Shown here piece after piece: positions 13,199 to 62,145 of a DNA stretch of 64,000 nucleotides. Each line of letters opens with the position of its first letter. Positions within the stretch are counted from its first letter, which is position 1. Source of the stretch: Candidatus Levyibacteriota bacterium (GTDB lineage Bacteria; Patescibacteriota; Microgenomatia; Levybacterales; UBA12049); contig CAVRKE010000001.1 of NCBI GenBank assembly GCA_963722305.1, forward strand, positions 12,312 to 76,311. The letters are read 5' to 3'. The notes beneath the pieces are model-generated. The model made no database searches, had not been told where the DNA came from, and worked only from the letters and a program-made list of their open reading frames with translations. Position numbers and translations under genes: made by a program.

Positions 13199-15486
13199 AA
13201 AAGTTATTACCGCTTATTTTGATTGGTGGAGTAATTCTAATTTTCTTTTGGCAGTTTCTGCTGAAAGGTTTTTTGCCTATCCCATCGGACACAATCGTCG
13301 GACTTTACTATCCATTTCGGGATGTCTATTTTCAGACCAATCCAAATGGGCTTCCCTACAAAAATTTTTTAATTACCGATCCCGTCCGGCAACAAATTCC
13401 CTGGAAGAATTTGGTGGTTGAGGCGGAAAAAAGACTGACTCTTCCGCTTTGGAATCCCTATAATTTTGCCGGTACACCACTTCTGGCCAATTTCCAGTCG
13501 GCGGCTTTTTATCCTTTAAATCTTCTATTTTATTTTCTGCCTTTTGAGCTTTCCTGGAGTTTGCTTATCCTTCTTCAGCCGCTTCTTGCAGGTATATTTT
13601 TGTACTTATATCTTAGAAACTTAAAGCTTAAAAAAATAGCCAGCGTTTTTGGCGCAATTTCGTTTTCACTCTGCGGATTTTTTGTTGCTTGGCTGGAGTG
13701 GGGGACAATACTGAATACTGCTCTCTGGCTGCCCTTGATTTTGCTCTCAATCGATAAGATTTTCCAAATCAAAAATAATAAATCTCCTTCGACCCTGAGC
13801 TCAGGACCGAAGGGAAAAATCAAAAATCTTCTTTGGCCGTTGGTTTTCATTTTATCCTTAGTCTGTGCTTTTTTTGCCGGACATTTACAGACGTTTTTCT
13901 ATCTGGCCGTGATTGTTCTAGCTTATTTTCTGGCACGTTGGTTTCAACATCGGTCGGAAATTAAATCCCTGCTGTTGTTTATTGTTATTTGCTTTGTGCT
14001 TATTTTATTAGTTTTGCCCCAGCTGATTCCGACACTTCAGTTTATTGCTCTTTCAGCCAGAAATCTCGACTTTCCTGCTTGGCAAACAAACCCGGGTTGG
14101 TTTATTCCCTGGCAAAATTTAATTCAATTCTTGGCTCCGGACTTTTTTGGCAATCCCGCGACCTTGAATTATTACGGAATTTGGAATTACGGAGAGTTTA
14201 GCGGTTACATCGGAATTTTGCCCTTGGTAATGGCTTTTTTCGCCCTTTTTTTCCGGAAAGATAAAAAAACGTTGTTTTTTGGTTCGGCTTTTTTTGTCTC
14301 GCTTTTATTTGCGCTGCCGACTATTTTTGCCAAACTTCCGTTTCAGTTTAATCTGCCTTTCATTGCTACCGCTCAGCCTACGAGGCTTCTCTTCATTACG
14401 GATTTTTCCTTAAGCGTATTGGCGGCTTTTGGTTTAGATTACTTTTTGCTTTCAAAGAACAGGAAATATATTTTGCCGATTCTGATAATTTTTGGTCTGG
14501 GTTTTGTCGGCCTTTGGAGTTTTGTTTTAAGATTTGACGCAGAGATTTTATCCCCGGTAAATTTGACAGTTGCCAAACAAAATTTAATATTACCAACATT
14601 AATCTTTATTCTAATTTCGATCCTGATTCTAATTGTGGTTTTTTACCAAAGAAACGAAAAGCTTTCAAAACTACTGTTCGGAATATTGGTTTTAATTACA
14701 ATTGGAGAGCTTTTAAGATTTGGTTGGAAGTTTGAGCCGTTTACCAATCAAGCCTATTTTTTCCCCTCAACTTCGGTAATGGCCTTTTTACAAAAGCAGG
14801 AACAGCCGTTCAGAATTATGGCAACGGATTCAAGAATTCTTCCCCCTAATTTTTCGTCCAGCTATAAATTGCAAACTCTTGACGGTTACGATCCTTTATA
14901 TCTGCAAAGGTTCGGAGAGTTGATGGCAGCCTTAAAAAGAGACAGACCGGATATTACACCGCCGTTTGGCTTTAACAGAATAATTACTCCGCAGGATCCT
15001 TCATTAAAGATAATCGATTTGCTGGGAGTTAAATATGTGCTAAGCTTGGATAAGCTTAGCAGTCCAAAGCTCAAGCCCGTTTTTACAGACGGCTTTGTGC
15101 AAGTTTATGAAAATCAGGAGGCCTTTCCCCGTGCTTTTTTTGTCAAGCATACGCTAATAGCAGATTCAAATCAGCAGGCAATCGACAAACTTTTCAGTTC
15201 GGAAAATATTTTGCATGATACCGCGGTGGTAGAAAATGTGCAAAATTTCAAAGCCAATTGGAGCTTGGGGCAAGCAAGGATCATAAAGTATGAGCCAAAT
15301 ATAATTGACATCCAAACAACTAACGCCGGCGAAGGGTTTTTGGTTTTAACCGATAGTTTCTATCCAACCTGGCATGCAACCATCGACGGAAGGGAAGCTA
15401 CTATTTATCTGACTGATTATAATTTTAGAGGAATAATTATTCCAAAGGGGAAACATCTTGTCGAATTTTATGATACCCTTTTTTAA
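13195..15486 (+). CDS. YfhO-family-like GT-C membrane glycosyltransferase
   Basis: 763 aa and polytopic. N-terminal 'LWNPYNFAGTPLLANFQSAAFYPLNLLFY'. C-terminal 'FYPTWHATIDGREATIYLTDYNFRGIIIPKGKHLVEF' matches the YfhO C-terminal signature. Confidence 0.65.
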   Translation: MKKLLPLILIGGVILIFFWQFLLKGFLPIPSDTIVGLYYPFRDVYFQTNPNGLPYKNFLITDPVRQQIPWKNLVVEAEKRLTLPLWNPYNFAGTPLLANFQSAAFYPLNLLFYFLPFELSWSLLILLQPLLAGIFLYLYLRNLKLKKIASVFGAISFSLCGFFVAWLEWGTILNTALWLPLILLSIDKIFQIKNNKSPSTLSSGPKGKIKNLLWPLVFILSLVCAFFAGHLQTFFYLAVIVLAYFLARWFQHRSEIKSLLLFIVICFVLILLVLPQLIPTLQFIALSARNLDFPAWQTNPGWFIPWQNLIQFLAPDFFGNPATLNYYGIWNYGEFSGYIGILPLVMAFFALFFRKDKKTLFFGSAFFVSLLFALPTIFAKLPFQFNLPFIATAQPTRLLFITDFSLSVLAAFGLDYFLLSKNRKYILPILIIFGLGFVGLWSFVLRFDAEILSPVNLTVAKQNLILPTLIFILISILILIVVFYQRNEKLSKLLFGILVLITIGELLRFGWKFEPFTNQAYFFPSTSVMAFLQKQEQPFRIMATDSRILPPNFSSSYKLQTLDGYDPLYLQRFGELMAALKRDRPDITPPFGFNRIITPQDPSLKIIDLLGVKYVLSLDKLSSPKLKPVFTDGFVQVYENQEAFPRAFFVKHTLIADSNQQAIDKLFSSENILHDTAVVENVQNFKANWSLGQARIIKYEPNIIDIQTTNAGEGFLVLTDSFYPTWHATIDGREATIYLTDYNFRGIIIPKGKHLVEFYDTLF

Positions 15487-15487
15487 G

Positions 15488-16423
15488 ATGAAAATAAGTA
15501 TTGTTATCCCAAATTATAACGGGGAGGCACTGCTCAAGAATAACTTGCCAAAAGTTTGCGAAGAGCTAGAGACTCTCAGAGCAGAAGAATTCGAAATAAT
15601 TGTCATAGATGACGCGTCTTCGGATGAAAGCTTGTCACTACTTAAAAAACTGGCGGAAAAATATAGAAACCTAAAAATTTTCAGTAATGAAAAAAACCTA
15701 GGGTTTTCTCCAACTATCAATAAAGGTGTAAAGGCGGCCGGCGGGGAGATAATAATTCTTTTAAACACCGATATTTATCCGGAAAAAGGCTTTCTGGAAC
15801 CGTTACTGGTTCATTTCGCAGAAGACGAAAAAGTTTTTGCCGTGGGCTGTCTTGATAAAAGCATTGAAGGAGAAAAAACAGTTTTAAGAGGACGAGGTTT
15901 GGGTGAATGGAAAAGGGGTTTTCTTGTCCACCGACGCGGCGAAGTTGATAAAACCGACACGCTTTGGGTAAGCGGAGGAAGCGGTGCGTTCAAAAAGTCA
16001 ATCTGGGACAAGCTTTCGGGGTTTAATGAGCTGTTTACGCCTTTTTATTGGGAGGACATCGATATTTCCTACCGGGCTTTAAAATTGGGTTACACTGTCG
16101 CATTTGAGCCCAAAAGTGTCGTTGTGCACGAACACGAAAAGGGAGCAATCAAAAACAAATATTCCCCTTCCCAAGTAAAAACGATTGCTTACAAAAACCA
16201 ATTTATTTTTGTTTGGAGCAACGCGGACTCAAATCTGATTTTTGTTCATCTGCTGTGGCTACCATACCATTTTGCCAAAGCCTTGCTAAGATTTGACTGG
16301 CTATTTTTCGTAGGTTTCTTCAGGGCTTTTATTTTACTGCCAAAAATTATAAAATCAAGGGCAAAATCTCAACCCCTTTTTGTCAAAACAGATAGCCAGG
16401 TTATCGATGAACTAGGTAAATAA
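15488..16423 (+). CDS. GT2 glycosyltransferase
   Basis: 'ISIVIPNYNGEALL', 'IIVIDDASSDESL', 'LNTDIYPE' and 'YWEDIDISYRA'. The start is taken at ATG 15488, one nt after the upstream stop. Confidence 0.8.
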   Translation: MKISIVIPNYNGEALLKNNLPKVCEELETLRAEEFEIIVIDDASSDESLSLLKKLAEKYRNLKIFSNEKNLGFSPTINKGVKAAGGEIIILLNTDIYPEKGFLEPLLVHFAEDEKVFAVGCLDKSIEGEKTVLRGRGLGEWKRGFLVHRRGEVDKTDTLWVSGGSGAFKKSIWDKLSGFNELFTPFYWEDIDISYRALKLGYTVAFEPKSVVVHEHEKGAIKNKYSPSQVKTIAYKNQFIFVWSNADSNLIFVHLLWLPYHFAKALLRFDWLFFVGFFRAFILLPKIIKSRAKSQPLFVKTDSQVIDELGK

Positions 16424-16424
16424 A

Positions 16425-18395
16425 ATGAACATCCTAAGCGTCTCTTTCTGGTTTTACTTTGCATATTTTTGGTTAACAGTCTTTATTGCATTTTACATAC
16501 CTGGCATTTTTTTTATAAAGAGGTTCAACTTAACTACATTTCAAAATTTTGTCTTGGGGACAATTGTCGGAATGGTTTTTTGGGGTGTCCAAGGATTTAT
16601 TTTTGGTTATCTTAACCTCAGGCTCCTTTCGTATATTTACTTGTTGTTTTTTCTATTAGCCTGGTTTAGGACAAAACCAAAACTGCCTAAAATACACATC
16701 GCAAGAAAGAAATTTGACCTATTATTAATTATAATAATTACAGTTGGAGTTTTTATCCAACTTACTTCTGTTTGGTTTACCGGCGTAATGACAAAAAACG
16801 GATTATATTTTTGTTGCGGTTCCCAAATGGACAACATTTTGCAGATATCAATTACAGATCAAATTGTAAAAAATTTTCCACCGCTAGAACCCGGGATGTA
16901 TCCGGTTGTTATGCAAAATTACCATTATTGGGATAGTCTGGTGATGGGAGAGTTGATTAGAGTTTTTAAATTACCACTGATAGCGACAGATTATCAGTAT
17001 ATGACTATTCTTCTTTCTTTGTTTTTGGGTTTGTCGGCAATAGTCTTTTCACAAGTGTTAAGGCTTAAAAAAACCTTTATGCGTTGGCTGATCTTTTTTC
17101 TTTATTTTGGTGGAGATTTTATTTGGATACTAATAGCAATTTTCCGAGGAAAAGATTTTTTTGGGATGACTCCCATGGAAAGCGGCCAGCAGTTTCTAGA
17201 AAATATTCCAAGAGCAACAGCCGTTTTGGTCTTTTTTTCATTTGCCTCAATTTTTACGTTATGGATTAAAAGAAAAGATAGGTGGAGTGGATTTCTAATG
17301 GCAGTTACTGCGGCAACTTTACTTGGATTTAAGATCTATTTAGGAATTTTTGTCTTCTGCGGACTATTTGTATTGGCGCTTTATTATTTTATCAAAAAAA
17401 AATATTCGCTGTTAAGCCCGATCGTTTTTGCAATAATTTTAGGGTTAGTAATATACTTACCGGTTAATTCGGGGGCAGGGGGGTTGTTCTTTACCGGAAC
17501 ATGGCGATTTGAAAACTTTATAGTCCAACCTTTTTTCGGCACATTAAATCGGTTGGAGCTTGCTAGGGTAATATATTCACAACACCACAACATTTTAAGA
17601 GTTATAGAATACGAGTCGATATACGCATTGCTCTTTATATTTGCTATTTTTGGTACGAAGTTATTGGGGTTTTTCCAAAACAAAAAGTCCTTATCATTAT
17701 TGCCCAAAGAGTTAAATATACTATTAATTTCCGGTATTACCGTAAGTGCTGTTGCTGGTTTATTCTTTAATCAAACGACCGGAAACTCAAATACCTTCAA
17801 TTTTTTGGTGAATGTTTTCATCATTGGTTCAATCTACACAGCTCTTGCATGCTACTATTGGTTTGAAAAAAAACGTGGGATTTTGGTAAATTTTTTAATA
17901 CTTATAATAATTGTTCTGACTATCGCCAGACCACTGAATCAAACTTATAAAAACTTAAATTACCTTATTAACGGGACAGGCTTTTTAGTTTCAGATAACG
18001 AATTATCAGTAATAAATTTTCTTACTAAACAAAAAGACGATTCCAAGTTTGTGATAGTTGATCCTAAGATAACAATGAGTTTAAAGGCACCGTATCTTAG
18101 TTTTTTGACAGGAAAAAAAATATTTTTGTCAGGCCAAAGCGAGGAATTGGAAACTCATGGTGTAAATTTTTCAAGCAGGCAAAAAATACAGGATACTATT
18201 TTTTATGGATTAAATCCTGCTGCGGTCAGCGCTTATCTGCTTAAAAATAATATCGGATATATTTATATGCGCAGTGAAGATATGCTTACCAGTACAGATT
18301 CGGCAATGTTTTTCAATGAAATCATCAGCAATAAAGAGGTAAAAATATTAGAAGTGGATCCGGCTAAAGCAAAGTTATATTTAGAACAGCATTGA
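16425..18395 (+). CDS. Polytopic membrane protein 'family C' (putative GT-C/polymerase-like), paralog of 48017-49951
   Basis: 656 aa with more than 12 TM helices. Shared loop motif 'FPPLEPGMYPVVMQNYHYWDSLVMGELIRVFKLP' (compare 'FPPNEPGLFGIALINYHFWFHLVTAELIRVFHLP'). Confidence 0.5.
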   Translation: MNILSVSFWFYFAYFWLTVFIAFYIPGIFFIKRFNLTTFQNFVLGTIVGMVFWGVQGFIFGYLNLRLLSYIYLLFFLLAWFRTKPKLPKIHIARKKFDLLLIIIITVGVFIQLTSVWFTGVMTKNGLYFCCGSQMDNILQISITDQIVKNFPPLEPGMYPVVMQNYHYWDSLVMGELIRVFKLPLIATDYQYMTILLSLFLGLSAIVFSQVLRLKKTFMRWLIFFLYFGGDFIWILIAIFRGKDFFGMTPMESGQQFLENIPRATAVLVFFSFASIFTLWIKRKDRWSGFLMAVTAATLLGFKIYLGIFVFCGLFVLALYYFIKKKYSLLSPIVFAIILGLVIYLPVNSGAGGLFFTGTWRFENFIVQPFFGTLNRLELARVIYSQHHNILRVIEYESIYALLFIFAIFGTKLLGFFQNKKSLSLLPKELNILLISGITVSAVAGLFFNQTTGNSNTFNFLVNVFIIGSIYTALACYYWFEKKRGILVNFLILIIIVLTIARPLNQTYKNLNYLINGTGFLVSDNELSVINFLTKQKDDSKFVIVDPKITMSLKAPYLSFLTGKKIFLSGQSEELETHGVNFSSRQKIQDTIFYGLNPAAVSAYLLKNNIGYIYMRSEDMLTSTDSAMFFNEIISNKEVKILEVDPAKAKLYLEQH

Positions 18396-27554: not shown

Positions 27555-28331
27555 ATGGCAAGAAAAACTTTATCCGTCGTGTTGGCCACTTATAACGAAG
27601 AAGCAAATTTGGCAAGTTGTTTAGATAGTGTTAAGGATTTGGCCGATGAGATAATCATTGTTGATGGAAGCTCGACCGATAAAACCGTCGAAATTGCCAA
27701 AAAGTATGGCGCAGTTGTGAAAGTCACTACTAATAAGCAAAACTTCCACATCAATAAGCAAATGGCTATTGACATGGCAACGAAGGATTGGGTTTTGCAA
27801 CTTGATGGTGATGAGCAGGTGTCAAAAGAACAAGCAGAAGAAATTGCAGAAGTTTTGGAGAAAGATTCAAACGAGTTTAACGGCTATTGGATGCCGAGAA
27901 AAAACTGGTTTTTGGGAAGGTTTTTACTAAAAGGCGGACAGTATCCGGACTATACTTTAAGGTTTTATCGAAACGGTAAGGGCAGGCTTCCGCAAAAGGA
28001 TGTTCATGAACAGGCGGTAGTTGAGGGGAAAGTCGGCTATCTGAAAAATGCTCTTTTGCATTACCCATACAAAAATTTTTCGCACTATTTAAATAAATGG
28101 AACAGATATAACGTGTTTTTTGCAGGGCAAATTAAAGAAGAGCAACGAAGCAAAAATATCCTGCAAAGGTTATTTTATGCTTTTCTTTATTTATTTATTA
28201 AACCGGCGCACTGGTTTTTGACAACCTTTTTTAGGCATAAAGGATTTGTCGATTCGTGGCAGGGTTTTGTGTTTTCACTCTTTTCAGCTCTAAGATTTCC
28301 GGTTTCATATATAATATACTTAACAACATGA
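27555..28331 (+). CDS. GT2 glycosyltransferase (WaaE/KdtX-like)
   Basis: 'LSVVLATYNEEANLASCLDSVKDLADEIIIVDGSSTDKTVEIA' and 'LQLDGDEQV'. Confidence 0.8.
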   Translation: MARKTLSVVLATYNEEANLASCLDSVKDLADEIIIVDGSSTDKTVEIAKKYGAVVKVTTNKQNFHINKQMAIDMATKDWVLQLDGDEQVSKEQAEEIAEVLEKDSNEFNGYWMPRKNWFLGRFLLKGGQYPDYTLRFYRNGKGRLPQKDVHEQAVVEGKVGYLKNALLHYPYKNFSHYLNKWNRYNVFFAGQIKEEQRSKNILQRLFYAFLYLFIKPAHWFLTTFFRHKGFVDSWQGFVFSLFSALRFPVSYIIYLTT

Positions 28332-29293
28332 AAATTTTAGTCACCGGTGGTGCGGGATATATCGGCAGTATAACCGTAAAATTACTGCAGGACAAAGGAC
28401 ATCAGCCGGTTGTATTTGATAATTTAATTTATGGGCATAAGGAAGCAGTTAGTTGTCCGCTGATTGTCGGGGATTTATTGGATAAAGACTTTCTTTTTAA
28501 GAGCTTTGCAGAGGAAAAATTTGATGCCGTAATTCATTTTGCCGCTTACGCTTTGGCCGGAGAGTCAATGGAAAATCCTTATAAGTACTTTTATAACAAT
28601 ATTCAGGGAGGATTGAATCTACTTGATTTGATGAGGCAAAATAACATTCCAGACATAATTTTTTCTTCAACTTGTTCTATTTATGGCACGCCAAAAGTTT
28701 TACCGGTAAGTGAAGATGAAGCGAAGAAACCGGAAAGCGTTTATGGCGAGTCTAAGCTGATGTTTGAAAAAATTCTTGATTGGTACGACACAATTTACAA
28801 AATAAAGCACATAAGCCTTCGCTATTTTAATGCCGCGGGCGCGGCCTTAGATGCAAGTCTAGGAGAGGATCATAATCCCGAGAGCCACATCATCCCGGTG
28901 GCAATAAAAGCGGCAATTAATAATCAGCCGTTTAATCTTTTTGGAGACGATTATTCCACCAAAGACGGCACTTGTATTAGAGATTATATTCATGTCCAGG
29001 ATTTGGCCGAAGTGCACATTCAGGCAATAAATAAGCTAAAGGAGACTAAAACCAGTGACGCCTTCAATCTGGGTACAGGCAATGGTTATTCTAACCTTGA
29101 GGTGTTAGAGATGGTCAAGAAAGTAAGCGGCATAAATCTTCAGATTGTCAAGAAACCAAGAAGAGCAGGGGATCCGCCAATGATTTTTGCCGATAACAAA
29201 AAAGCCAAAAAAGAGTTGGGTTTTAACCCTCAGTACTCAGATCTTGAGACAATTGTCAAAACCGCTTGGCAATGGCACAAAAAACAAAGTTAA
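28328..29293 (+). CDS. galE: UDP-glucose 4-epimerase (NAD-dependent epimerase/dehydratase, GalE-like)
   Basis: 'MKILVTGGAGYIGS' Rossmann motif, 'YGTPKVLPVSEDE' and 'YGESKLMFEKIL' (YxxxK). About 320 aa. The ATG at 28328 overlaps the upstream stop (ATGA). Confidence 0.8.
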   Translation: MKILVTGGAGYIGSITVKLLQDKGHQPVVFDNLIYGHKEAVSCPLIVGDLLDKDFLFKSFAEEKFDAVIHFAAYALAGESMENPYKYFYNNIQGGLNLLDLMRQNNIPDIIFSSTCSIYGTPKVLPVSEDEAKKPESVYGESKLMFEKILDWYDTIYKIKHISLRYFNAAGAALDASLGEDHNPESHIIPVAIKAAINNQPFNLFGDDYSTKDGTCIRDYIHVQDLAEVHIQAINKLKETKTSDAFNLGTGNGYSNLEVLEMVKKVSGINLQIVKKPRRAGDPPMIFADNKKAKKELGFNPQYSDLETIVKTAWQWHKKQS

Positions 29294-30453
29294 AAGTGCA
29301 TAAAGTTATAAAGTTCATAAAGTCAAAATTATTCAAGAGAATTATTTTTGTAATTCTTTTGGCCGTAATTGTTTTTAACGTCGGTTCGACGGTCTGGAAA
29401 CTTAGGTCAACTTATTTTTCATCCAATTATAATGCAAGTTTTTTATCTCTTCAAAAAATTTATTATGATTCCATTTATAAAAACAAACACGGCGGTTTTG
29501 TTCCAGACGAAGTCCTATACTCGTATATTGGCGGGGCTTTAATGAAAGGTAAAAGCCCAATTTTTCTAAATCCTGAAGTTCCACCTTTGGGGACATATAT
29601 TATCGGCTTATCGACAGTTGTTTTTAATAATCAGTATATTGTAATTGTTTTATTTGCAGCCTTGTCATTGTATCTAATATATCTAGTGGGATTACAAATT
29701 TATTCATCGAGATTTCTTGCTTTGATTCCGCCTTTATTGTTTTCCTTTGAACCGATTTTTAAAAATCAATTGGTATACGCTCCTTTGTTAGATATTATCC
29801 AATTAACTTTCTTGCTTTCAATCTTCTATTTTTTCAACAAAGCATTGCACAGTAAGAATAATTTTCTACTTTATATTGTACTAGTAAACATATTTTTCGA
29901 TTGTTTCATTTCCACAAAATTTTTCGGCACAGGAATAACAGTTGCATTTGCTGTTTTATTTCCATTAGCTATTCACAAAGAATGGAGAAGGCTAATGACA
30001 ACTTTAATTACCATGCCAATTGCTGTGATTATACTTTATGCCAATTATCTAAAAGTTCTTATAGACGGTTATCCGTTAAACAAATTTTTGGGAATTCAAA
30101 AATGGATCTTAATTTACAATGAAGGCCATTTAATGAAACCGTTTAGTATTTGGCCTCTTTTGTTATTTAACAAATGGTATCAGTCGTTTGGTAAACAATC
30201 CGTATCCTCCGATCCGCAATGGTTAATTTCGTGGCCATTTATTACAATTATTTCCCTTATTACAATTGTGATTTCTTTTATAAAGAAAATATCTAAAAGA
30301 GAAGTAGAGATAATGTTTTTTTGGATAATTTCATACTTACTACTAATGAGTTTTGTAGATGCCAGTACTCGTTACTTTGTTATTCTTATTCCAATATTGT
30401 ATATGATTGCTTTATACGGGATAATAGAATTTGTAAAGGTGATAAAGAAATGA
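29266..30453 (+). CDS. ArnT/Pmt-like polytopic membrane protein (putative GT-C)
   Basis: 'FVPDEVLYSYIGGALMKGKSPIFLNPEVPPLGTYIIGLS' resembles the ArnT first-loop and 'EKPPL' region. About 10 TM helices. The start is uncertain: ATG 29266 overlaps galE, and GTG 29296 is an alternative. Confidence 0.5.
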   Translation: MAMAQKTKLKVHKVIKFIKSKLFKRIIFVILLAVIVFNVGSTVWKLRSTYFSSNYNASFLSLQKIYYDSIYKNKHGGFVPDEVLYSYIGGALMKGKSPIFLNPEVPPLGTYIIGLSTVVFNNQYIVIVLFAALSLYLIYLVGLQIYSSRFLALIPPLLFSFEPIFKNQLVYAPLLDIIQLTFLLSIFYFFNKALHSKNNFLLYIVLVNIFFDCFISTKFFGTGITVAFAVLFPLAIHKEWRRLMTTLITMPIAVIILYANYLKVLIDGYPLNKFLGIQKWILIYNEGHLMKPFSIWPLLLFNKWYQSFGKQSVSSDPQWLISWPFITIISLITIVISFIKKISKREVEIMFFWIISYLLLMSFVDASTRYFVILIPILYMIALYGIIEFVKVIKK

Positions 30454-31490
30454 AGATTGCGATTGATGTTTCACCGCTTAAGACAGGCCACAGAGTAAGA
30501 GGGGTTGGCTTTTACCTTGAGCATCTTAAAAATGCCTTAGTTAAATATTTTCCGGAGAATGAGTATGTTTTTTTCGAAAGCGGGGAAAAGCTGCCTATGG
30601 ATATTGACTTAATTCATTTCCCCTATTTTGAACCCTTCTTTCTGGCGCTGCCTTTATACAAAAAATTTAAAACCGTAGTCACAGTACACGATTTGACACC
30701 GATAGTTTTTCCCCAGGCCTTTCCACGAGGCATCAAAGGTGAATTAAAATGGCAGATGCAAAGATATGCCCTCCGGCAGGCGGACGCCATCATCACAGAT
30801 TCAGAGTCTTCAAAAAAGGACATTGTTAAATATGTCGGAGCCAATTCTAATAAGATAAACGTCGTCTATCTCGCAGCGGGAGAGCAGTTCCGAAGACTTA
30901 AGACTGAAGACTTAAGACTGAAGACAGAGTACCAACTTCCCGAAAAATTTGTTCTGTACGTCGGAGATGTTACCTGGAATAAAAATCTTCCCAGGTTAAT
31001 GGGAGCGGTTAAGGAGTTGAATATTACATTGGTCATGATTGGAAAAAGCTTGGCTCAGGTGGACTACGACCGAAATAATCCCTGGAATGCCGATTTAAAC
31101 AGGGTTAACGAGCTGGCAAAAGAAAATGAAAAAATTATCAGACTAGGCTTTGTTCCGACGGAGGACTTGGTAGGTATCTATAATTTGGCCAGTGTATTTG
31201 CTATGCCTTCTTTGTATGAGGGATTTGGATTGCCTGTTTTGGAGGCGATGGCCTGTGGTTGTCCCGTTATCACTGCCAAACAAGGTTCACTGTTGGAGGT
31301 CGCCGGTAGCGCCGCCTTTTACGTCGATGCCTATGACGTTACAAGTATTTCCTCCGGCATCCAAAAAGTATTGGGCGATGAAAAATTGCAACAGGAATTA
31401 AGAGAAAAAGGCTTGGAAAACGCAAAAAAATTTTCCTGGAAAAAGACGGCCGGAGACACAGTTAAAGTTTATGAGAGGGTTTTTGGGTAA
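30450..31490 (+). CDS. GT4 glycosyltransferase
   Basis: '[28 protein letters not shown]' (E-x7-E). The ATG at 30450 overlaps the upstream stop. It contains a 14-bp tandem duplication at 30892-30926. Confidence 0.8.
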
Positions 31491-46471: not shown

Positions 46472-48017
46472 ATGAAAAAGCTTAAATGGGTTTTATTATT
46501 CCTTATTCTCTTTCTCGCATTTTTGCTTGGGGCAAGAATCATTTTATCCGGTGACTTTTTTTACCTCTACGACCAGGCCAGAGACTACCTGCTAGTCAAA
46601 AATGTTGTCGTTAACCACAGTTTAATCTTAATCGGCAACCGCAGTGGCTTGGGAGGGTTTTTCCATGGGCCAATCTGGATTTACCTGCTTGTTCCGGTAT
46701 ATATCTTAGCCAAAGGCAGTCCTTTTGGCTTGGCTTATTTTTACGTCGGGCTTGAGCTTTTTACAGTTTTTGCGCTTACTTAATCGGTGCAAAACTCTAT
46801 GGCAAAAAAGCAGGATTGTTTATCTCATTGTTGACGGCATTGTCTCCCGCTGTTTGGTCGACGGTCAAAAATACGGTCAGTGCCAACATCAGCCGTTGGT
46901 TTATCTTGGACTGTTTTATTTTCTGGTTCAGTTTTTTCGGGGCGACAAAAAAGCTTTTATTTTCGCGGCTTTTCTGGCGGGTCTGGCTCTCCAATTTGAA
47001 ACAGCTTTTTCTTTAGTGCTATTTCCGACCGTCATCGTGTTTTTTGTTTTAAATAAAATCGCCATCGAAGATTTGAAAATAATCTGCTTAAGTCTTATTT
47101 CTTTCGTCTTAAGTCTTACATCTTTTATCTTGTTCGATCTTCGCCACAGATTTTTAATGACCCACGCCATTATTAGTGCTTTCGGTGGTGGGCAAAAGGG
47201 GAGCGGTTACCTTGGTTTTACGGATAGACTGATAAGCCATCTCAACGGATTAATCGGAGTATATAAAGATCCGGTATTTAGTCAGGATTTATTATCAGTA
47301 TTGTTTTTGGCGGCGATTTTTATCTTTGGCTTAGTGCTAGTTTTAAAAAACAAAAAAGAAAAGTATCGAAAAGAGTTTATCTTTTTGCTATTTTTTCCGG
47401 CTGTTTTCTTTGGATTTACTATGTTTTACCCCTATCCGGTTTGGCCGGAATATGTTTTTGGGTTACTTGTTCCGGTCGCGTTCGCCTTCTACCTGGCAGT
47501 TAGAACTGTTTGGAAAAACTCTTTTGGTAAAGTCTTAATTACTTTATTTTTTCTGATTACTTTTTTTCATGTTTTTGTCTTTCTACAAAATCAGTACTTA
47601 ACAAAATACACCAGACTTAACTCGGCCGGCTCTTATCAAAACCAAAAAGCAGTGGTCGAATGGGTCTATCAAAATGCCGGACGAGACGCTAGTCGAAGCG
47701 GAAACTTTGGCTATTTTGTTTATACTCCGGAAGTTTTTACCCACGGGATGGATTATTTGTTTTATTGGTACGGCAAAAAAAATCCAACGGTGACTTTTGA
47801 GAGCAAAAAGGACGTAACGACCTACTTGATTTTATATCCGCATTTGGCAAACGATAACGGAGCTTATGATTTTTGGAAGAAAAATGTTTTGCATACCCAG
47901 GGGAAAGTGATTTTGACAAAAACATTTTACGGAGGAATAACAGTGCAAAAGCTATCAATTACTGCTTCCGAACCGCCGGTTGACCCGAATTATTATCAAG
48001 GTTTAATTTTTAGATAG
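46472..48017 (+). pseudogene. Family B membrane protein (DxxRD motif) with two frameshifts, near 46760-46785 and 46870-46900
   Basis: ORF 46472-46783 ('YLYDQARDYLLVKNVVVNHSLILIGNRSGLGGFFHGPIWIYL') continues in a second frame ('AYLIGAKLYGKKAGLFISLLTALSP', track ORF 46816-47016). It then continues in a third frame, 46725-48017. All three segments are collinear with the intact paralogs at 25966 and 51562. Confidence 0.5.
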
Positions 48018-53281: not shown

Positions 53282-54214
53282 ATGATTAGCGCAGTAATTC
53301 CGGTTTTTAACGAAGAAGAAAGTCTTAATAAATTTTATTCCGTATTAACACTTGCTCTCTCAAAGCTTGGTGCTTACGAAATTATTTTCGTCGATGACGG
53401 TTCCACCGATTCTTCGTTGACGCTCATGAAAAAACTGGCTGCGAAAGACAAGAAAATCAGAATTTTTTCATTCCGGACAAATCATGGAAAAGCCGAAGGT
53501 TTAACTTTGGGTTTTCAAATGGCTAAAGGCGATTATATCGTCACGTTGGACGCGGATTTACAGGACAGGCCGGAAGAAATAAAAAATCTTCTAAAGAAAC
53601 TTAAAGAAGGCTATGACCTGGTTTCCGGCTGGAGAAAAAACAGGAAAGACGCGTTGAAAACCAAGCTTTCTTCAAAGCTTTTTAACTACGTCATGAATTC
53701 TTTTTGGGGAGTGCATTTGCACGATTACAATTGCGGTTTAAAAATTTATACAAAGCAAGCTGCCAAGAGTCTAAATATGTACGGAGGAATGTATCGTTTT
53801 ATTCCGCTTTTAGCCGCGGAAAAGGGTTTTGAGGTTACGGAAGTACCGGTGGTGCATGAAAAAAGACAATACGGTAAATCGAAATACGGATTTTCAAAAA
53901 TTTTCAGAGATGTCCCGGATATGTTTACGATACTTTTCCTTTCGCGATACGCCAAACGCCCCTTACATTTTTTTGGGTTTATCGGCGGGGTAGCTACATT
54001 GGCTGGCTCAATTATTCTTTTATATCTGTATATTTTGCGGTTGATGGGGCAGAGAGTGGGAACAAGACCGCTTTTGACTTTCGGGATGCTTTTAGTGCTA
54101 GCTGGTTTTCAGGTTTTGTTTACGGGATTCCTGGCGGATTTAATTTTACACATCACACAAAAAGACAAAGATGGCGATTCATACGAAAACGAGTTGAAAT
54201 ATAAAACTAAATGA
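53282..54214 (+). CDS. GtrB/ArnC/DPM1-like polyprenyl-phosphate glycosyltransferase (GT2 with C-terminal TM anchor)
   Basis: 'ISAVIPVFNEEESL', 'IIFVDDGSTDSS', 'TLDADLQDRPEEI' and 'VSGWRKNRKD', plus two C-terminal TM helices ('FFGFIGGVATLAGSIILLYLYIL..LLVLAGFQVLFTGFLADLIL'). This is the classic GtrB/ArnC layout. Confidence 0.85.
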   Translation: MISAVIPVFNEEESLNKFYSVLTLALSKLGAYEIIFVDDGSTDSSLTLMKKLAAKDKKIRIFSFRTNHGKAEGLTLGFQMAKGDYIVTLDADLQDRPEEIKNLLKKLKEGYDLVSGWRKNRKDALKTKLSSKLFNYVMNSFWGVHLHDYNCGLKIYTKQAAKSLNMYGGMYRFIPLLAAEKGFEVTEVPVVHEKRQYGKSKYGFSKIFRDVPDMFTILFLSRYAKRPLHFFGFIGGVATLAGSIILLYLYILRLMGQRVGTRPLLTFGMLLVLAGFQVLFTGFLADLILHITQKDKDGDSYENELKYKTK

Positions 54215-54780
54215 AAATAGGAATTGATATTTCACAATTAGCATATCCTAATACAGGAGTTGCAAATTACCTGCAAAAGCTCGTTAATAACCTCATCGAA
54301 ATGGACAAGAAAAACCAGTACGTGTTATTTTTCTCAAGTTTGAGAAAAACAATTCATAATTCACAATTCATAATTCACAATTCTAACGTCAAAATAAAAA
54401 CTTTTAAGATTCCTCCGACAATTTTGGACATTCTTTGGAACAAGCTGCATATTCTAGCGATTGAAAATTTTATTGGTCCAGTTGATGTGTTTATTACTTC
54501 GGACTGGACAGAACCACCAGTCAAACATGCCAAGAAAGCGACCATTCTTTATGACTTGATTGTTTATAAATATCCGGAAGAAACTCACAATAAAACCAGT
54601 TTTAATCCTCTTAAGTTGATTATTTCACCAAATATTGTCGCTTCACAAAAAAGAAAACTCAACTGGGCGAAAAAAGAATCGGCGATGTTTTTCTGTATTT
54701 CAGAGGCGACTAAAAAAGACGCCGTTCAAATTCTTGGTATCTCTGAAAATAAATTAGCTGTGATAAACGCAGGAATTTGA
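54211..54780 (+). CDS. GT4 N-terminal domain only (truncated glycosyltransferase remnant)
   Basis: 189 aa: 'MKIGIDISQLAYPNTGVANYL' ... 'NKLAVINAGI*'. It stops at the N/C domain boundary. No C-terminal E-x7-E domain follows. It contains (AATTCATAATTCAC)x2. Confidence 0.5.
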   Translation: MKIGIDISQLAYPNTGVANYLQKLVNNLIEMDKKNQYVLFFSSLRKTIHNSQFIIHNSNVKIKTFKIPPTILDILWNKLHILAIENFIGPVDVFITSDWTEPPVKHAKKATILYDLIVYKYPEETHNKTSFNPLKLIISPNIVASQKRKLNWAKKESAMFFCISEATKKDAVQILGISENKLAVINAGI

Positions 54781-54855
54781 ACAAGTTATAAAGTTTGTAA
54801 AGTACGGAGTTCATAAAGTACTTTACAACTTTAAACATTATAACTTTATAAACTT
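54781..54855. repeat. Palindromic intergenic repeat R1 (centre AAAGTACTTT; arms AAGTTATAAAGTT / AACTTTATAAACTT)
   Basis: Read directly from the sequence. It is an imperfect 75-nt inverted repeat ending at the ATG of 54856. It is related to the repeat at 56529-56604. Confidence 0.55.
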
Positions 54856-55971
54856 ATGTTGATTGGCATCGACGGGAACGAAGCAAATGTACAAAAGCGG
54901 GTGGGTATCGGCGAGTATGCATACGAACTGCTGACGCAGTTCGAGAGATTTAAGATTAATGATTTAAGATTTAAGATTTATCTCAAGAATGCCCCGATGG
55001 GGCATATGCCGAAGGAAAGAGAAGGGTGGAAGTACCAGGTATTTGGCCCGAGGAAAATGTGGACCCAATTTGCTTTGCCTCTGAATTTGTTTTTAAGCAG
55101 GCCAAAACCGGTTGTATTTTTTAGTCCCAGCCATTATGCTCCGCGGTTTTCTCCGGTTCCGACCGCGATTTCAATTATGGATTTGTCCTATATCCATTTT
55201 TCCGAGCTTTTTACCAAACACGATTTATATCAATTAATCAATTGGACCAAATACTCCGCAAAAAACGCTCGGAAAATATTCACAATCAGTAATTTTAGTA
55301 GGGATGATATAATCAAAACATACGAGAAAAGACCGGAGGACGTGGTCACGACGTATCTTGGGATAAAGGAGATTAAAGATTCAGGATTAAAGATTAAAGA
55401 TATGGACGAACTAGAAAAAAAGTTCAAGATTACAAAACCTTACATTCTGTTTGTTGGTACTTTGCAGCCCCGAAAAAACATTGTCAGACTAATTGAAGCC
55501 TTCTCCAAAATTAAAGACAAAACAGTCAAATTAATAGTTGTTGGTAAAAAGGGCTGGTTGTGGGAAGAGATTATTCAGGCTCCGGAAAAGTTTGGGGTTT
55601 TAGAAAGAGTCAAGTTTCTGGATTTTGTCAAAGATGAAGACCTCCCGGGGCTTTATAAAAATGCGCTTTGTTTTGTTTTGCCCAGTCTTTATGAAGGTTT
55701 CGGCTTGCCGGTTCTGGAAGCGATGAAATACGGCTGCCCGGTTTTAGTCAGTAATGTCTCCAGTCTTCCCGAAGTTGGAGGAGATGCTGCTGTGTATTTT
55801 AATCCGCAAAACACGGATGAGATTACTCAACAGCTGGATAAAGTTCTGTCCGATGAAGAGCTAAGGAAAGAAATGGTTAAAAAAGGTTATAATCAGGTTA
55901 AGCAGTTTTCTTGGGAAAAAGCGGCGTCCGAAACGCTTCGCGTTTTGGAGGAATTAGGAGGTAAGAAGTAA
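54856..55971 (+). CDS. GT4 glycosyltransferase
   Basis: '[28 protein letters not shown]'. It contains two heptad-periodic repeat tracts (54946-54980 and 55371-55405). Confidence 0.8.
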   Translation: MLIGIDGNEANVQKRVGIGEYAYELLTQFERFKINDLRFKIYLKNAPMGHMPKEREGWKYQVFGPRKMWTQFALPLNLFLSRPKPVVFFSPSHYAPRFSPVPTAISIMDLSYIHFSELFTKHDLYQLINWTKYSAKNARKIFTISNFSRDDIIKTYEKRPEDVVTTYLGIKEIKDSGLKIKDMDELEKKFKITKPYILFVGTLQPRKNIVRLIEAFSKIKDKTVKLIVVGKKGWLWEEIIQAPEKFGVLERVKFLDFVKDEDLPGLYKNALCFVLPSLYEGFGLPVLEAMKYGCPVLVSNVSSLPEVGGDAAVYFNPQNTDEITQQLDKVLSDEELRKEMVKKGYNQVKQFSWEKAASETLRVLEELGGKK

Positions 55972-55976
55972 GAATT

Positions 55977-56528
55977 ATGAATAGAGTCGCCAGGAGGATA
56001 AAAACGGTATTTTGGGAATTAGTCTGTTGGAAATTAGCAGTTACAGGTTATATTCCCTCGCATTATTTAAGAAGATTTGTTTACCGTTTTTGGGGAGTAA
56101 AGATTGGTAGTGGTTCAACCATGCATATGCACGCCTCTTTTTATTATCCGCCGAACGTCACAATTGGTGAAGACACGATAATCGGTGAGAAGGTGGTTTT
56201 AGACGGAAGAGCTAAGCTTGTAATCGGTAACCACGTTGATATCGCCAGCGAAGTGATGATTTATAATTCCGAACATGATCTAAACGACGAAAACTTTAAA
56301 GCCATTTCCGAACCGGTGACAGTTGAGGATTATGTGTTTATCGGGCCAAGAGCAATTATTCTACCCGGGGTCACAATTCACAAAGGCGCGGTGGTTGCCG
56401 CCGGTGCGGTGGTCACCAAAGATGTACCGGAATTTGTGGTTGTCGGGGGAGTACCGGCTAAAGAAATTGCCCAAAGAGAAAATAAAAATCCTAATTATAA
56501 ACTTGGTAGAGCCGCTTGGTTTCGATAA
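55977..56528 (+). CDS. Hexapeptide-repeat (left-handed beta-helix) sugar O-acetyltransferase (WcaF/maltose-acetyltransferase-like)
   Basis: 'IGEDTIIGEKVVLDGRAKLVIGNHVDIASEVMIYN' and 'VFIGPRAIILPGVTIHKGAVVAAGAVVTKDV'. Confidence 0.75.
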   Translation: MNRVARRIKTVFWELVCWKLAVTGYIPSHYLRRFVYRFWGVKIGSGSTMHMHASFYYPPNVTIGEDTIIGEKVVLDGRAKLVIGNHVDIASEVMIYNSEHDLNDENFKAISEPVTVEDYVFIGPRAIILPGVTIHKGAVVAAGAVVTKDVPEFVVVGGVPAKEIAQRENKNPNYKLGRAAWFR

Positions 56529-56604
56529 CGAAGTTCATAAAGTTAAAAGTTCATGAGTGTAATAAAGTACTTTATAGACTTTTGACTTTACAAACTTTTA
56601 ACTT
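56529..56604. repeat. Palindromic intergenic repeat R2 (same family as R1)
   Basis: 'GAAGTTCATAAAGTT...AATAAAGTACTTTAT...ACTTTACAAACTTTTAACTT' ending at the ATG of 56605. It shares GTTCATAAAGT and ATAAAGTACTTTA with R1. Confidence 0.55.
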
Positions 56605-57483
56605 ATGACAGACTTGTCAATAATTATTTTAAATTACAATACCAAAGATTTAACCGTTGAGTGTATAAATTCCATCGTTTCGCAATATAAAGAAGAATTG
56701 GATAAAGGGATTTTTGAAATTATCTTGGTTGATAATGCCTCAAGCGACGGAAGTATCGAAAAACTGGCAAGACTTAAAACACAAATTCCAAATCTAAATT
56801 TAAGCGAAAGCCAAGAAAACTTGGGGTTTTCGAAAGGCTGTAATTTGGGGGCAAATAGCGCAAAAGGGGATTATCTATTATTTTTAAATTCGGACACCGA
56901 AATTAAGGACCAGGGACTAAAAAAAATGGTTGAGTATCTGAAAAAAAATAAAAAAATCGGCATTTTAGGTGCCGCATTGAAAAATGAGGACGGCACCACC
57001 CAGCCCTCAACCGGAAAATTTTATAATCTTATAAATCTTTTTTTAATGTTGTTGGGTTTTGAGCGCTTAGGATTTTTAAGAGACAGTCCGAAAGAAATTA
57101 AAAAAGTCGATTGGGTCAGCGGGGCAGCGCTAATGATAAAGAGGAAAATTTTTAAGATAATCGGGGGATTTGAAAAAGAGCTGTTTATGTACGGAGAAGA
57201 CATGGAGCTTTGTTTTAGGGCCAACAAAAACGGTTTTCCGACTTTTTTCTATCCAGAAATTATTTTATTCCATAAACAAAGAGGCAGCAGTAATCGCACT
57301 TTTGCCATAGTCAATATTTATAAGTCATTGCTCTTTTTTTACAAAAAATATAAACCGGGTTGGCAATACGAAATTGCCAGGTTTCTATTACACTCAAAAT
57401 CTTCTATACTTAACACGGTTGGACTCTTAACCAATAATAAGTACTTAAAAGAAACTTATGGGCAAACTCTGGAACTGTTTTAA
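56605..57483 (+). CDS. GT2 glycosyltransferase
   Basis: 'LSIIILNYNTKDLTVECINSI', 'IILVDNASSDGS', 'LNSDTEI' and 'YGEDMELC'. Confidence 0.8.
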   Translation: MTDLSIIILNYNTKDLTVECINSIVSQYKEELDKGIFEIILVDNASSDGSIEKLARLKTQIPNLNLSESQENLGFSKGCNLGANSAKGDYLLFLNSDTEIKDQGLKKMVEYLKKNKKIGILGAALKNEDGTTQPSTGKFYNLINLFLMLLGFERLGFLRDSPKEIKKVDWVSGAALMIKRKIFKIIGGFEKELFMYGEDMELCFRANKNGFPTFFYPEIILFHKQRGSSNRTFAIVNIYKSLLFFYKKYKPGWQYEIARFLLHSKSSILNTVGLLTNNKYLKETYGQTLELF

Positions 57484-60669: not shown

Positions 60670-62145
60670 ATGAATGCGGGAATTTTAAAAAAAATAGAAA
60701 TTGTTTTGTTGGCGGTTATTTTATTGGTAGGTTTTGCCGTCAGGCTTTACAGATTTAACGGTCCGGTGGCGGATTGGCATTCCTGGCGTCAGGCGGATAC
60801 TTCGGCAGTTTCCCGGAACTTTGTGCAAAACGGCTTTGACCTTTTGCATCCGAAATTTGAAGATTTATCAAACGTTCCTTCGGGCTTGGATAATCCAAAC
60901 GGTTACCGCTTTGTGGAATTTCCGATTTATAATCTTTTGCAGGCCGGATTTTTCAAAATTATCGGAGTGCTGACACTGGAAGAATGGGGAAGGCTGGTGA
61001 CAATCTTCGCTTCACTTTTTTCTTCTTTGTTTTTGTTCGCATTGGTTAAAAAAAGATTTGGCCGCGTGCCGGCATTTTTGACAACTTTCTTCTTTTTAAT
61101 TATTCCTTTTAACATTTACTATTCAAGAACGATTTTACCCGACCCTTCAATGGTGACTGCTATTTTGGGAGGAACGTTTTTTTTTGATAAATGGCTCGAT
61201 AATAATTCAAAATTCAAAATTCAAAATTCAAAATTAAAGAGTGCTGTTTATTTTCTTTTGTCACTTTTTCTTACGGCAGCGGCTCTGCTTTTAAAGCCTT
61301 ACGCTTTGTTTTTTACCCTGCCAATGATTTATCTGGCGTTTGAGAAATTCGGATTCGGATTGCTTAAAAAATGGCAGTTGTGGCTATTTTTAATCGTTTC
61401 AATTATACCCTTGGCTTTCTGGCGAGTGTGGATGACGCAGTATCCGGCCGGAATTCCCGCCAGCGCCTGGCTTTTTAACGAAGGAAATATCCGCTTTAAA
61501 GGGGCTTTCTTCTATTGGATTTTTGCCGACAGGATTGGCAGGCTAATTTCGGGATTTTGGGGAGTGGCCCTTATTATCCTTGGCTTTTTGGCAAAATCGA
61601 AAAAGAAAGACCTGCTGTTTCTGCTTTCTTTTGTTGTCTCATCTTTGCTGTATGTGACGGTTATCGCACGGGGCAATGTTCAGCACGATTATTACCAAAT
61701 ATTAATTATTCCAACCTTGGCAATTCTAATGGGCGTTGGAGCAGCCGGTCTTTTGGAAAGAGCCGAAACATACAAAATGTTTATAAATTATGCGATTGTG
61801 ATTGTTTGCACTTTATTTACAATTTTCTTCGGCTGGTATTTCGTCAGGGATTACTTTAATATCAACAATCCGTCAATAATTGTGGCAGGAGAGGCAGTGG
61901 ATAAATTGACTGCCAAAAATGCCAAGGTCATTGCCAATTATAACGGGGATACCTCGTTTCTTTATCAGACTAAAAGAAGCGGTTGGGCAAGCTTTGAAAA
62001 ACCGTTGCCGGAAATGATAAACATGGGCGCAGATTATCTGGTGTTGGCAAATCCGACCACGGTTGATTTAGGTTTGGGGAAGACCTACAAAATAATCGCC
62101 CAAACTTCACAATACGTAATTTTTGATTTAAGACAAAAACCATGA
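60670..62145 (+). CDS. ArnT-like (GT83/GT39-type) GT-C glycosyltransferase
   Basis: 'RLYRFNGPVADWHSWRQADTSAVSRNFVQNGFDLLHPKFEDL..NPNGYRFVEFPIYNLLQA'. It is polytopic. A (TTCAAAA)x4 repeat and a T9 run lie inside the coding sequence. Confidence 0.7.
   Translation: MNAGILKKIEIVLLAVILLVGFAVRLYRFNGPVADWHSWRQADTSAVSRNFVQNGFDLLHPKFEDLSNVPSGLDNPNGYRFVEFPIYNLLQAGFFKIIGVLTLEEWGRLVTIFASLFSSLFLFALVKKRFGRVPAFLTTFFFLIIPFNIYYSRTILPDPSMVTAILGGTFFFDKWLDNNSKFKIQNSKLKSAVYFLLSLFLTAAALLLKPYALFFTLPMIYLAFEKFGFGLLKKWQLWLFLIVSIIPLAFWRVWMTQYPAGIPASAWLFNEGNIRFKGAFFYWIFADRIGRLISGFWGVALIILGFLAKSKKKDLLFLLSFVVSSLLYVTVIARGNVQHDYYQILIIPTLAILMGVGAAGLLERAETYKMFINYAIVIVCTLFTIFFGWYFVRDYFNINNPSIIVAGEAVDKLTAKNAKVIANYNGDTSFLYQTKRSGWASFEKPLPEMINMGADYLVLANPTTVDLGLGKTYKIIAQTSQYVIFDLRQKP
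61206..61233 (+). repeat. Perfect heptanucleotide tandem repeat (TTCAAAA)x4 inside the ArnT-like CDS, flanked by degenerate copies
   Basis: Read directly: aataa ttcaaaa ttcaaaa ttcaaaa ttcaaaa ttaaaga. It encodes '..NSKFKIQNSKLK..'. A T9 run lies 20 nt upstream. Confidence 0.8.

Follow-up and report, generated by a model that had tools for sequence, protein, structure and literature searches.

Simple sequence repeats (SSRs) with non-triplet units occur at several loci per genome in the lipopolysaccharide/lipooligosaccharide (LPS/LOS) and capsule glycosyltransferase genes of Haemophilus, Neisseria, and Campylobacter, where slippage gives rise to frameshift nulls. Here we describe a heptanucleotide array inside a family 39 glycosyltransferase (GT39) gene of Levybacteria, a lineage belonging to the Candidate Phyla Radiation (CPR; Patescibacteria), whose members are very abundant, mostly uncultured, and thought to be attached to other cells. 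The array lies in a 64,000-nucleotide stretch of DNA (the window), the initial annotation of which proposed the array and a T9 homopolymer just upstream as a candidate phase-variation switch. We conclude that the array is, on balance, probably a slippage-prone coding microsatellite in a permissive protein loop, yielding variation in loop length together with rare nulls. As in the contingency loci of Haemophilus, Neisseria, and Campylobacter, perfect non-triplet SSRs lie within glycosyltransferase open reading frames (ORFs) at several loci per genome; the long mono-, tetra-, and pentanucleotide tracts, frequent OFF states, and strain variation of those systems are not seen here, and their hosts are animal pathogens, whereas ours are environmental CPR bacteria.

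By analogy, the mechanistically closest known case would be the poly-psi tract, (AAGACTC)n, of neuO of Escherichia coli K1, a phage-borne capsule O-acetyltransferase gene and thus also a surface-glycan enzyme gene with a coding 7-nt repeat. In both systems only one copy number in three preserves the frame, and the repeats are translated as heptads (RLKTQDS in NeuO; RLKTEDL and KFKIQNS at 30892 and 61204 of the window), and the repeat unit at 30892 is one base off that of neuO. Among 64 complete genomes, neuO has 3 to 53 copies and is OFF in 65.6%, and a single culture is visibly heterogeneous (PMC13001214), whereas the array here has about 4.6 copies, one of 79 comparable coding arrays is OFF, and the view is of consensus genomes only. 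Moreover, neuO is one mobile gene with its tract at the 5' end, unlike the present arrays, which are found in many chromosomal genes at internal loop or linker sites conserved across the phylum.

There is also a general excess of heptamer SSRs in bacteria, for which slippage linked to the polymerase footprint has been proposed as a cause (PMC4692102). As a genomic phenomenon, the closest counterparts are heptamer arrays found in cyanobacteria, Xanthomonas, and Beggiatoaceae: the cyanobacterial short tandemly repeated repetitive (STRR) sequences, the GGGAATC-type repeats of Xanthomonas and Nostoc, and the TAACTGA repeats of Beggiatoaceae likewise show a specific excess of period 7, short arrays (commonly two to six copies), and positions that are conserved among related species while length and sequence vary. 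Those repeats are overwhelmingly intergenic and have one or a few genome-specific units, whereas here 90% of arrays are in ORFs, the units are diverse, and the hosts are mainly GT4 and GT39 genes. Rickettsia palindromic elements are small repeats inserted in frame in permissive protein loops and, as here, represent repetitive DNA tolerated in coding surface loops; unlike them, the heptamer arrays are tandem microsatellites made in place rather than dispersed copies of a mobile palindrome. Although the mechanism class, a coding non-triplet SSR, is familiar, the class described here is new, comprising lineage-wide, almost exclusively period-7, GT4/GT39-focused, positionally conserved short arrays, and in the full-text literature we found no paper linking SSRs, heptanucleotide repeats, or phase variation to CPR, Patescibacteria, or Levybacteria.

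The array and its host gene

The four perfect TTCAAAA units that were initially annotated are present at 61206-61233, followed by a degenerate TTAAAGA, and the array and the T9 run are both within the 491-aa ORF on the plus strand, also as described (Table 1). The array is translated as ...FFFDKWLDNNSKFKIQNSKLK..., and the region including T9 as ...GGTFFFDKWLDNNSKFKIQNSKLKSAVYF...; the array itself specifies NSKFKIQNSKL(K), a turn between two predicted transmembrane helices. The expectation that gain or loss of one unit shifts the frame holds in silico: changes of one or two units in either direction cut the product to 186 to 226 aa, whereas removal or addition of three units leaves intact proteins of 484 and 498 aa, the former being the most frequent length among GT39 orthologues. 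In an AlphaFold2 model built from 39 homologues (predicted local distance difference test [pLDDT] 84.7; predicted template-modeling score 0.88), the tract residues 179-190 form a coil (179-185; pLDDT about 66) and the first turn of the next helix, and the flanking helices (158-178 and 186-208) are long and confidently modeled (pLDDT 88 to 97). As to the membrane side of the loop, the count of N-terminal helices and the positive-inside rule give conflicting answers.

The host protein has 3,333 homologues in Patescibacteria, mainly in Levybacteria, that are annotated as glycosyltransferase family 39, the closest other one being 81% identical, and the gene is present in every Levybacteria genome retrieved, with identities of 48 to 81%; across the phylum, homologues are 60 to 81% identical. 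The exact protein is located on a 608-kb contig. A profile search of PDB sequences returned no match. In Foldseek the model is closest to ArnT (5F15/5EZM; TM-score about 0.6, E=4e-9, identity 13%), and STT3/PglB and ALG9/12 come next. The description of the gene as ArnT-like is therefore apt for its modeled GT-C fold and is silent on its substrate. Two aspartates, D35 and D43, are invariant across 39 sequences in the segment ADWHSWRQAD and are candidates for the conserved acidic residues of the catalytic motif that ArnT-like enzymes have in the first loop after the first transmembrane helix. From the PMT_2 match and the GT-C fold, a role in surface glycosylation is predicted and likely.

The idea that T9 might act as a second switch did not hold up. 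The run specifies the phenylalanines of a conserved (Y/F)FF motif, whose codons contain T7 in 42 of 80 orthologues and T6 in 16 of 80; T9 itself is found only in the window and in L070, and the TTT TTT TTT of the window differs from the usual TAT TTT TTT by a single Tyr-to-Phe substitution. The window contains five 9-nt A/T runs against roughly two to three expected by a rough estimate, such that over-representation is not clear. We rejected T9 as an independent switch and regard it as a by-product of the conserved codons; it is plausibly a minor slippage site, with nothing marking design.

A lineage-wide class of period-7 arrays

To place the array in context, we used the GT39 locus with 10 kb on either side from 80 species-representative Levybacteria genomes, together with the window, for a total of 1.41 Mb. 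Among tandem arrays of at least three copies with periods of 4 to 15, 90 have period 7, three have period 8, one has period 10, and the other periods are absent; block-shuffling of the same 1.41 Mb gives no arrays of such quality. Similarly, Tandem Repeats Finder (TRF) reports 102 of 121 arrays as period 7, with a single array in a triplet-shuffled control, and all arrays in additional independent metagenome loci have period 7. With more than 100 arrays in more than 50 independent metagenome-assembled genomes (MAGs), the arrays are real at the DNA level and almost exclusively of period 7. Their lengths peak sharply at 31 to 34 nt, with a maximum of 42 nt (about six units) in coding regions, and of 46, 54, and 77 nt for the longest intergenic examples.

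The arrays are concentrated in particular genes and at particular sites. Eighty-one of the 90 are within long ORFs, 80 of these on the gene strand, and GT4 genes account for 49 of 67 host ORFs (73%) compared with 23 of 100 non-host ORFs at the same loci (odds ratio 9, P=2e-10). Glycosyltransferases, including GT39 and GT2, make up 61 of the 67 hosts, and the genes in the sampled loci for RecO, sugar-1-phosphate transferases, nucleotidyltransferases, DUF4012 proteins, and others are essentially array-free. The recurrent sites are some 150 nt from the start of the gene for a GT4 N-domain protein of about 185 aa, the GT39 turn, and, in GT4 enzymes of 370 to 400 aa, about 100 nt from the start, at about 520 to 600 nt (the inter-domain linker), and about 120 nt beyond the linker site. 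Overall, the first 60% of the host ORF holds 69 of 79 arrays and the last 40% only 10 (P=9e-8). Array density is 62 per Mb in coding and 86 per Mb in noncoding DNA.

Four other arrays of the window, at 30892, 54349, 54946, and 55370, are near-perfect, 32 to 35 nt long, and in GT4-family ORFs with the frame open throughout, and the site orthologous to the 54349 array has arrays in at least 14 other species. These bear out the initial observation that other glycosyltransferases of the locus contain 7-nt tracts, with the qualification that the gene holding a further, degenerate tract at 47087 is no recognized glycosyltransferase. One variant unit of the 54946 array, AGATTAATGATTTA, sidesteps an in-frame TAA. 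The PMT_2 paralogues of the window at 746, 19829, 23055, and 25966 have no heptamer arrays.

At the GT39 loop (window residues 176-194), 14 of the 16 loops with a score of at least 10 fit period 7 better than any other, as do 8 of the 8 with a score of at least 14. Only about a quarter of the orthologous loops have a recognizable array, and the array is therefore not required for the protein to work. Many array-bearing loops equal array-free loops in total length. In other species, the loop accepts in-frame inserts of about 6 to 50 aa, marking it as a permissive site.

The repeat units look alike, the most frequent being AATTTTC, AAAATTC, AAATTTC, AAATATC, and AAATCTC, although over 25 different units are represented among the 81 coding arrays, and two arrays of one genome have a common unit in only 6% of pairs. 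Because 7 and 3 share no factor, an array is read in all phases and its unit must be stop-free in every one of them; accordingly, 68 of the 81 consensus units from coding arrays lack stops in every frame (52% expected), the remainder escaping through variant units, whereas all nine intergenic units contain stops. An AT-rich genome and stop avoidance together lead to a C (or TAT/TAC) between a T-run and the next A-run, so that, judged by the unit sequences, the resemblance would need no sequence-specific recognition. The mean unit distance is 2.09 within and 2.41 between genomes (permutation P=0.015), a weak hint of unit exchange among the arrays of one genome, and a difference for which paralogy could account.

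Slippage and turnover of the arrays

Several comparisons of related genes show the arrays changing. The GT39 loop of the window is 21 nt, or three units, longer than that of its nearest relative, L081 (81% amino acid and about 75% nucleotide identity), which has degenerate heptamers only. In 119 orthologues of the GT4 gene downstream of GT39, the loop at the third site (site iii) is most commonly 16 aa (33 sequences), with 9 aa and 12 aa represented by 11 sequences each; the difference between 16 and 9 aa is one heptad, or three units, and many of the 16-aa loops are heptad-periodic (e.g., EIKSKIKNQKSKIDLK). Net three-unit changes (21 nt, 7 aa) thus distinguish related alleles. At a finer scale, P0010 and P0126, which belong to a common 90%-identity cluster (92% amino acid and 91% nucleotide identity), have the loops KFSIFNLYF and LRLRIYDLRF, respectively; their 30-nt tract window contains 16 mismatches, whereas most other windows have 0 to 5 and the maximum elsewhere is 10. 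Units vary between species and are uniform inside each array, and the presence of different, internally uniform units at orthologous sites indicates that the arrays undergo concerted turnover.

In one genome, L053, a single-unit loss has put a gene out of frame. The GT4 gene directly downstream of GT39 is split there exactly at its second array (13964-13989), the upstream frame ending ...EEIWPKIRSKIKDQRS and the downstream frame reading KIQLWVVGRKISTS...GGGTSYKILE. This array is 26 nt long compared with the modal 33 nt, and an ORF of 404 aa is regained when 7 nt (one unit) are added. As a query, the repaired protein matched only the OFF fragment itself, with next relatives at 66% identity and no ON counterpart on record.

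The 54946 array behaves differently: the window and L081 agree at 35 of its 36 nt, against about 76% identity for the genes (P=5e-4), and there are no synonymous differences over 12 codons. Such identity points to a possible constraint on tract purity or to very recent homogenization onto one unit.

OFF alleles are rare

The central proposal of the initial annotation, a phase-variation switch, fared unevenly. That the tract is a microsatellite of the slippage type is well supported, with the L053 one-unit loss, the three-unit difference from L081, and the turnover between P0010 and P0126 all in its favor, but switching as a frequent behavior at this locus is without support. In tblastn searches with the loop-flanking segments, 80 of 80 GT39 orthologues have the same frame on both sides of the loop. 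Of the coding arrays generally, 78 have the same frame open on either side and a single array is OFF, compared with 42 of 64 neuO alleles (Fisher P=9e-19), and the coding arrays extend to no more than about six units. Using the 178 residues upstream of the tract as the query, we found no truncated GT39 allele of the same species.

The databases contain no second strain of the window's species, and exact look-ups of neighboring proteins recovered only L091, a Logan contig (ERR11594402) from the same organism that is 100% identical over 54351-56646 and stops short of the GT39 tract. In L091, the 54946 and 55370 arrays are unchanged, and the contig start falls inside the 54349-54383 array. A second metagenome contig, L085, has an (AATTTTC) array at 11-42, 10 nt from its end. 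Contig ends of these kinds would be expected from copy-number heterogeneity. As a general proxy for heterogeneity, contig breaks had to be discarded, as by our own count none of 66 contig ends in the 80 genome loci is within 150 nt of an array.

Short GT39 fragments on long contigs were also considered as array-driven OFF alleles and rejected, since there is no heptamer array at the splits in L094 to L097. L094 is split by several frameshifts, and L097 by an insert with stop codons. In L095 (2700-2900) and L096 (2746-2946), a distant GT39 homologue is divided into 192 aa and 297 aa at the orthologous loop, beside an A7 run, and two independent assemblies, from JGI and ENA, agree exactly on the split sequence; a frameshift allele of natural origin and a site of recoding are both possible readings.

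Interpretation and alternative explanations

The reading we favor is that of a replication-slippage tract with a unit of 7 nt, housed where a structurally permissive turn joins two transmembrane helices of a conserved GT-C protein. The tract would be one member of a Levybacteria-wide class of about 4.5 to 5 units at fixed loop and linker sites, mainly of GT4 genes and this GT39 gene. Strand slippage would repeatedly contract, re-expand, and homogenize the tract, and the reading frame would act as a filter, with mostly net three-unit changes surviving as variants of loop length and sequence, and with changes of one or two units giving truncated nulls that are rare and usually purged. The tract would then be a mutational hot spot and loop diversifier, ON/OFF switching occurring at most at low frequency, and T9 would be incidental.

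Several observations sit uneasily with this account. The 9-fold enrichment of GT4 hosts and the near absence of arrays from non-glycosyltransferase genes are hard to reconcile with pure neutrality. Frameshifting SSRs are normally selected against inside genes, and the density of coding arrays nonetheless almost matches that of noncoding arrays. To these may be added the small share of arrays that fall in the last 40% of host ORFs and the retention of the 54946 array against a 76% background; all four features would also fit selection for mutability. Further, because homogenization by single-unit steps passes through OFF states, these must be at least transiently tolerated, and the account gives no reason why the period should be 7.

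The foremost alternative is that the arrays are true contingency loci, held by second-order selection as reversible frameshift switches of GT4 and GT39 genes and generating combinatorial diversity of surface glycans, for example against phage or for host attachment, at a rate kept low by the small number of units (about five). We consider this possible but doubtful. It would accommodate the points just raised, from GT4 enrichment and the paucity of arrays outside glycosyltransferase genes to the placement of most arrays in the first 60% of the ORF, the similar coding and noncoding densities, and the purity of the 54946 tract despite 24% background divergence. Perfect tracts in surface-glycan genes with a unit length that is not a multiple of three, the natural one-unit OFF allele in L053, the longer arrays at intergenic and operon-junction positions, and the start of L091 inside an array, which an assembly-graph bubble in copy number would produce, are in keeping with it, and neuO provides a precedent for a heptanucleotide coding switch with a unit, AAGACTC, one base from the AAGACTT of the window. 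Against it is the near lack of OFF states (none among 80 GT39 orthologues and one among 79 coding arrays, compared with 66% of genomes for neuO), together with a copy number that is narrow (mode 31 to 34 nt, genic maximum 42 nt) beside the 3 to 53 units of neuO, the restriction of recognizable arrays to about a quarter of orthologous loops, and the lack of arrays near contig ends. The GT39 gene is in addition highly conserved and present in every sampled species, which fits poorly with a dispensable, switchable function. A broader and slightly less probable proposal is that Levybacteria, and possibly other CPR bacteria, have a phylum-wide heptanucleotide phasome, in which dozens of short arrays, maintained at set loop sites in GT4 and GT39 envelope-glycosylation genes and at operon junctions, would serve as low-rate, reversible frameshift and loop-length switches and diversify the glycan coat.

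If contingency loci of this kind do exist, they would be the first such system in ultra-small, host-dependent CPR bacteria, and the unusual unit length may hint at a lineage-specific slippage mechanism. CPR surface glycans are probably central to the biology of these organisms, and how their surfaces vary is almost unknown; whether as a glycan phasome or as loop diversification, the class offers a concrete hypothesis that is testable in existing metagenomic reads. It also bears on the old puzzle of why heptamers are an over-represented class of long SSRs in several bacterial phyla, and as these arrays are intragenic, selection on the reading frame offers a means of dissecting the mutational process. 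In practical terms, CPR MAGs are likely to have annotation errors, in the form of split genes, and breaks in the assembly at these tracts.

Selection could instead act on the peptide, if the loops need short basic or amphipathic heptads (K/R-F-K-I-x-N/D-S/L), for instance for membrane association, with the DNA period being only a trace. Related loop peptides do recur across proteins, and the heptad number of NeuO is reported to raise enzyme activity (PMC13001214, citing earlier work). A 7-aa repeat, though, needs only a 21-nt period, and the sub-units match at synonymous positions, which is a property of the DNA; furthermore, peptides at the same site differ widely between species, many orthologues are without the motif, and arrays occur in intergenic DNA too. 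We therefore think this explanation unlikely.

Little different in standing, and if anything a shade less probable, is the suggestion that some five heptads (about 33 nt) might form a platform for a heptad-reading DNA- or RNA-binding protein that regulates glycosylation operons at the level of transcription or translation, by analogy with the omega repressor, which acts on 7-bp heptads, and with the Csp/S1-type binders proposed for the TAACTGA repeats. The sharp length peak, the conservation of array positions across species, the DNA-level conservation of the 54946 tract, and the arrays at gene junctions within operons would be expected of such an element, and regulators binding tandem heptamers have been proposed elsewhere (PMC4679880). 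There is, however, no common sequence, with more than 25 units overall and many per genome, and the consensus is explained by AT-richness and stop avoidance. Most orthologous sites are array-free, no candidate binding protein was identified, RNA around the tract folds more poorly than shuffled controls (z=+1.6), and an Rfam search of the window gave zero matches.

Chance low complexity or an assembly artifact in an AT-rich genome (about 40% GC locally around the window) is refuted by the shuffled controls, which give zero or one array, by an independent assembly that repeats the neighboring arrays base for base, and by the common period of the arrays across MAGs.

Additional arrays, inserts, and neighboring genes

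The features of the window, and the arrays of orthologous GT39 loops, are listed in Table 1.

Table 1. Repeat features of the window and of orthologous GT39 loops
Feature	Position	Strand	Context
GT39/PMT_2-family membrane glycosyltransferase gene, 491 aa	60670-62145	+	PF13231 PMT_2, E=2.2e-6, 28.4 bits (gathering score 26.1)
T9 homopolymer	61177-61185	+	FFF of (Y/F)FF motif, GT39 gene
Heptanucleotide array (AATTCAA)x4.6	61204-61235	+	GT39 gene; TRF period 7, match 100%, score 64
Heptanucleotide array (GAAGACT/TAAGACT)x4.9	30892-30925	+	Inter-domain linker of GT4 gene 30321-31490
Heptanucleotide array (ACAATTC/ATAATTC)x5	54349-54383	+	189-aa GT4 N-domain protein, 54211-54780
Heptanucleotide array (AGATTTA-type)x5	54946-54980	+	Near 5' end of GT4 gene 54856-55971
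Heptanucleotide array (AGATTAA-type)x4.6	55370-55401	+	Inter-domain linker of GT4 gene 54856-55971
Degenerate tract of period 7/21, units like CTTAAGT, 70-83% matches	47087-47131	+	Membrane-protein ORF 46725-48017, no recognized glycosyltransferase
AAAGTT-rich repeat, period 8-9/17	29286-29328		Junction of epimerase gene 28256-29293 and ORF 29266-30453
16-nt repeat ACTTTACAAACTTTTA x2.2	56569-56604		Spacer directly upstream of GT2 gene 56605-57483
(ACAATTT)x5			GT39 loop, L070
(AATTTTC)x4.9			GT39 loop, L026
(AATTTCA)x4.4			GT39 loop, L037
(GATTTAC)x4.7			GT39 loop, L036
(AATTTTC)x3.9			GT39 loop, L023 and L024
(TACGATC)x4			GT39 loop, L041
(AAATCTC)x3.9			GT39 loop, L007

Arrays in intergenic DNA or at gene junctions (L069:4150-4226, L068:12721-12766, L046:17716-17769, L078:5814-5847, and L037:3516-3541) are longer, up to (ATAAATC)x11, and all have stop codons on the gene strand. 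Several are directly upstream of or between glycosyltransferase ORFs, where a change in copy number could shift promoter or ribosome-binding-site spacing. In L041, (AACTAAT)x4.7 at 16091-16123 and (ATTAGTT)x3.7 at 17878-17912 form an intergenic inverted pair, 85 to 95% complementary, that flanks exactly two genes, one for an NTP_transferase and one for a Bac_transf initiating sugar transferase; the pair could bound an invertible or mobile segment, or be a long-range pairing element. Two paralogous GT4 genes of L007 have identical first arrays, (AAATATC)x4.9, of 34 nt (4226-4259 and 13682-13715), and second arrays (4642-4672 and 14097-14128) that both have the unit AAAAATC, which suggests a possible recent duplication or gene conversion that included the arrays.

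The loops that hold arrays are also hot spots for GC-rich, hairpin-forming inserts resembling miniature inverted-repeat transposable elements, most of which are read through in frame. They are found in the GT39 loops of L005, L010, L011, L050, L064, and L097, in L081, where a GC-rich insert breaks the orthologue of the 55370 array, and in the GT4 site iii peptides as well as in P0009, P0045, and P0104; peptides derived from them include FPTNSIRAGSRMENTIG, LRQGFGGQA, and VILS.AKN...QDDN. The L097 insert has terminal inverted repeats, GTCATTCTGAGG...ATTCAGGATGAC, contains stop codons, and breaks the GT39 gene.

Taken together, the genes of the window form an envelope-glycosylation island that includes at least five PMT_2 paralogues, a YfhO, two PTPS-related membrane proteins, and two flippases, as well as enzymes of the GT2 and GT4 families, an epimerase, and a hexapeptide transferase. 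Nearly all ORFs across its 64,000 positions are on the plus strand, and the cumulative GC skew climbs monotonically.

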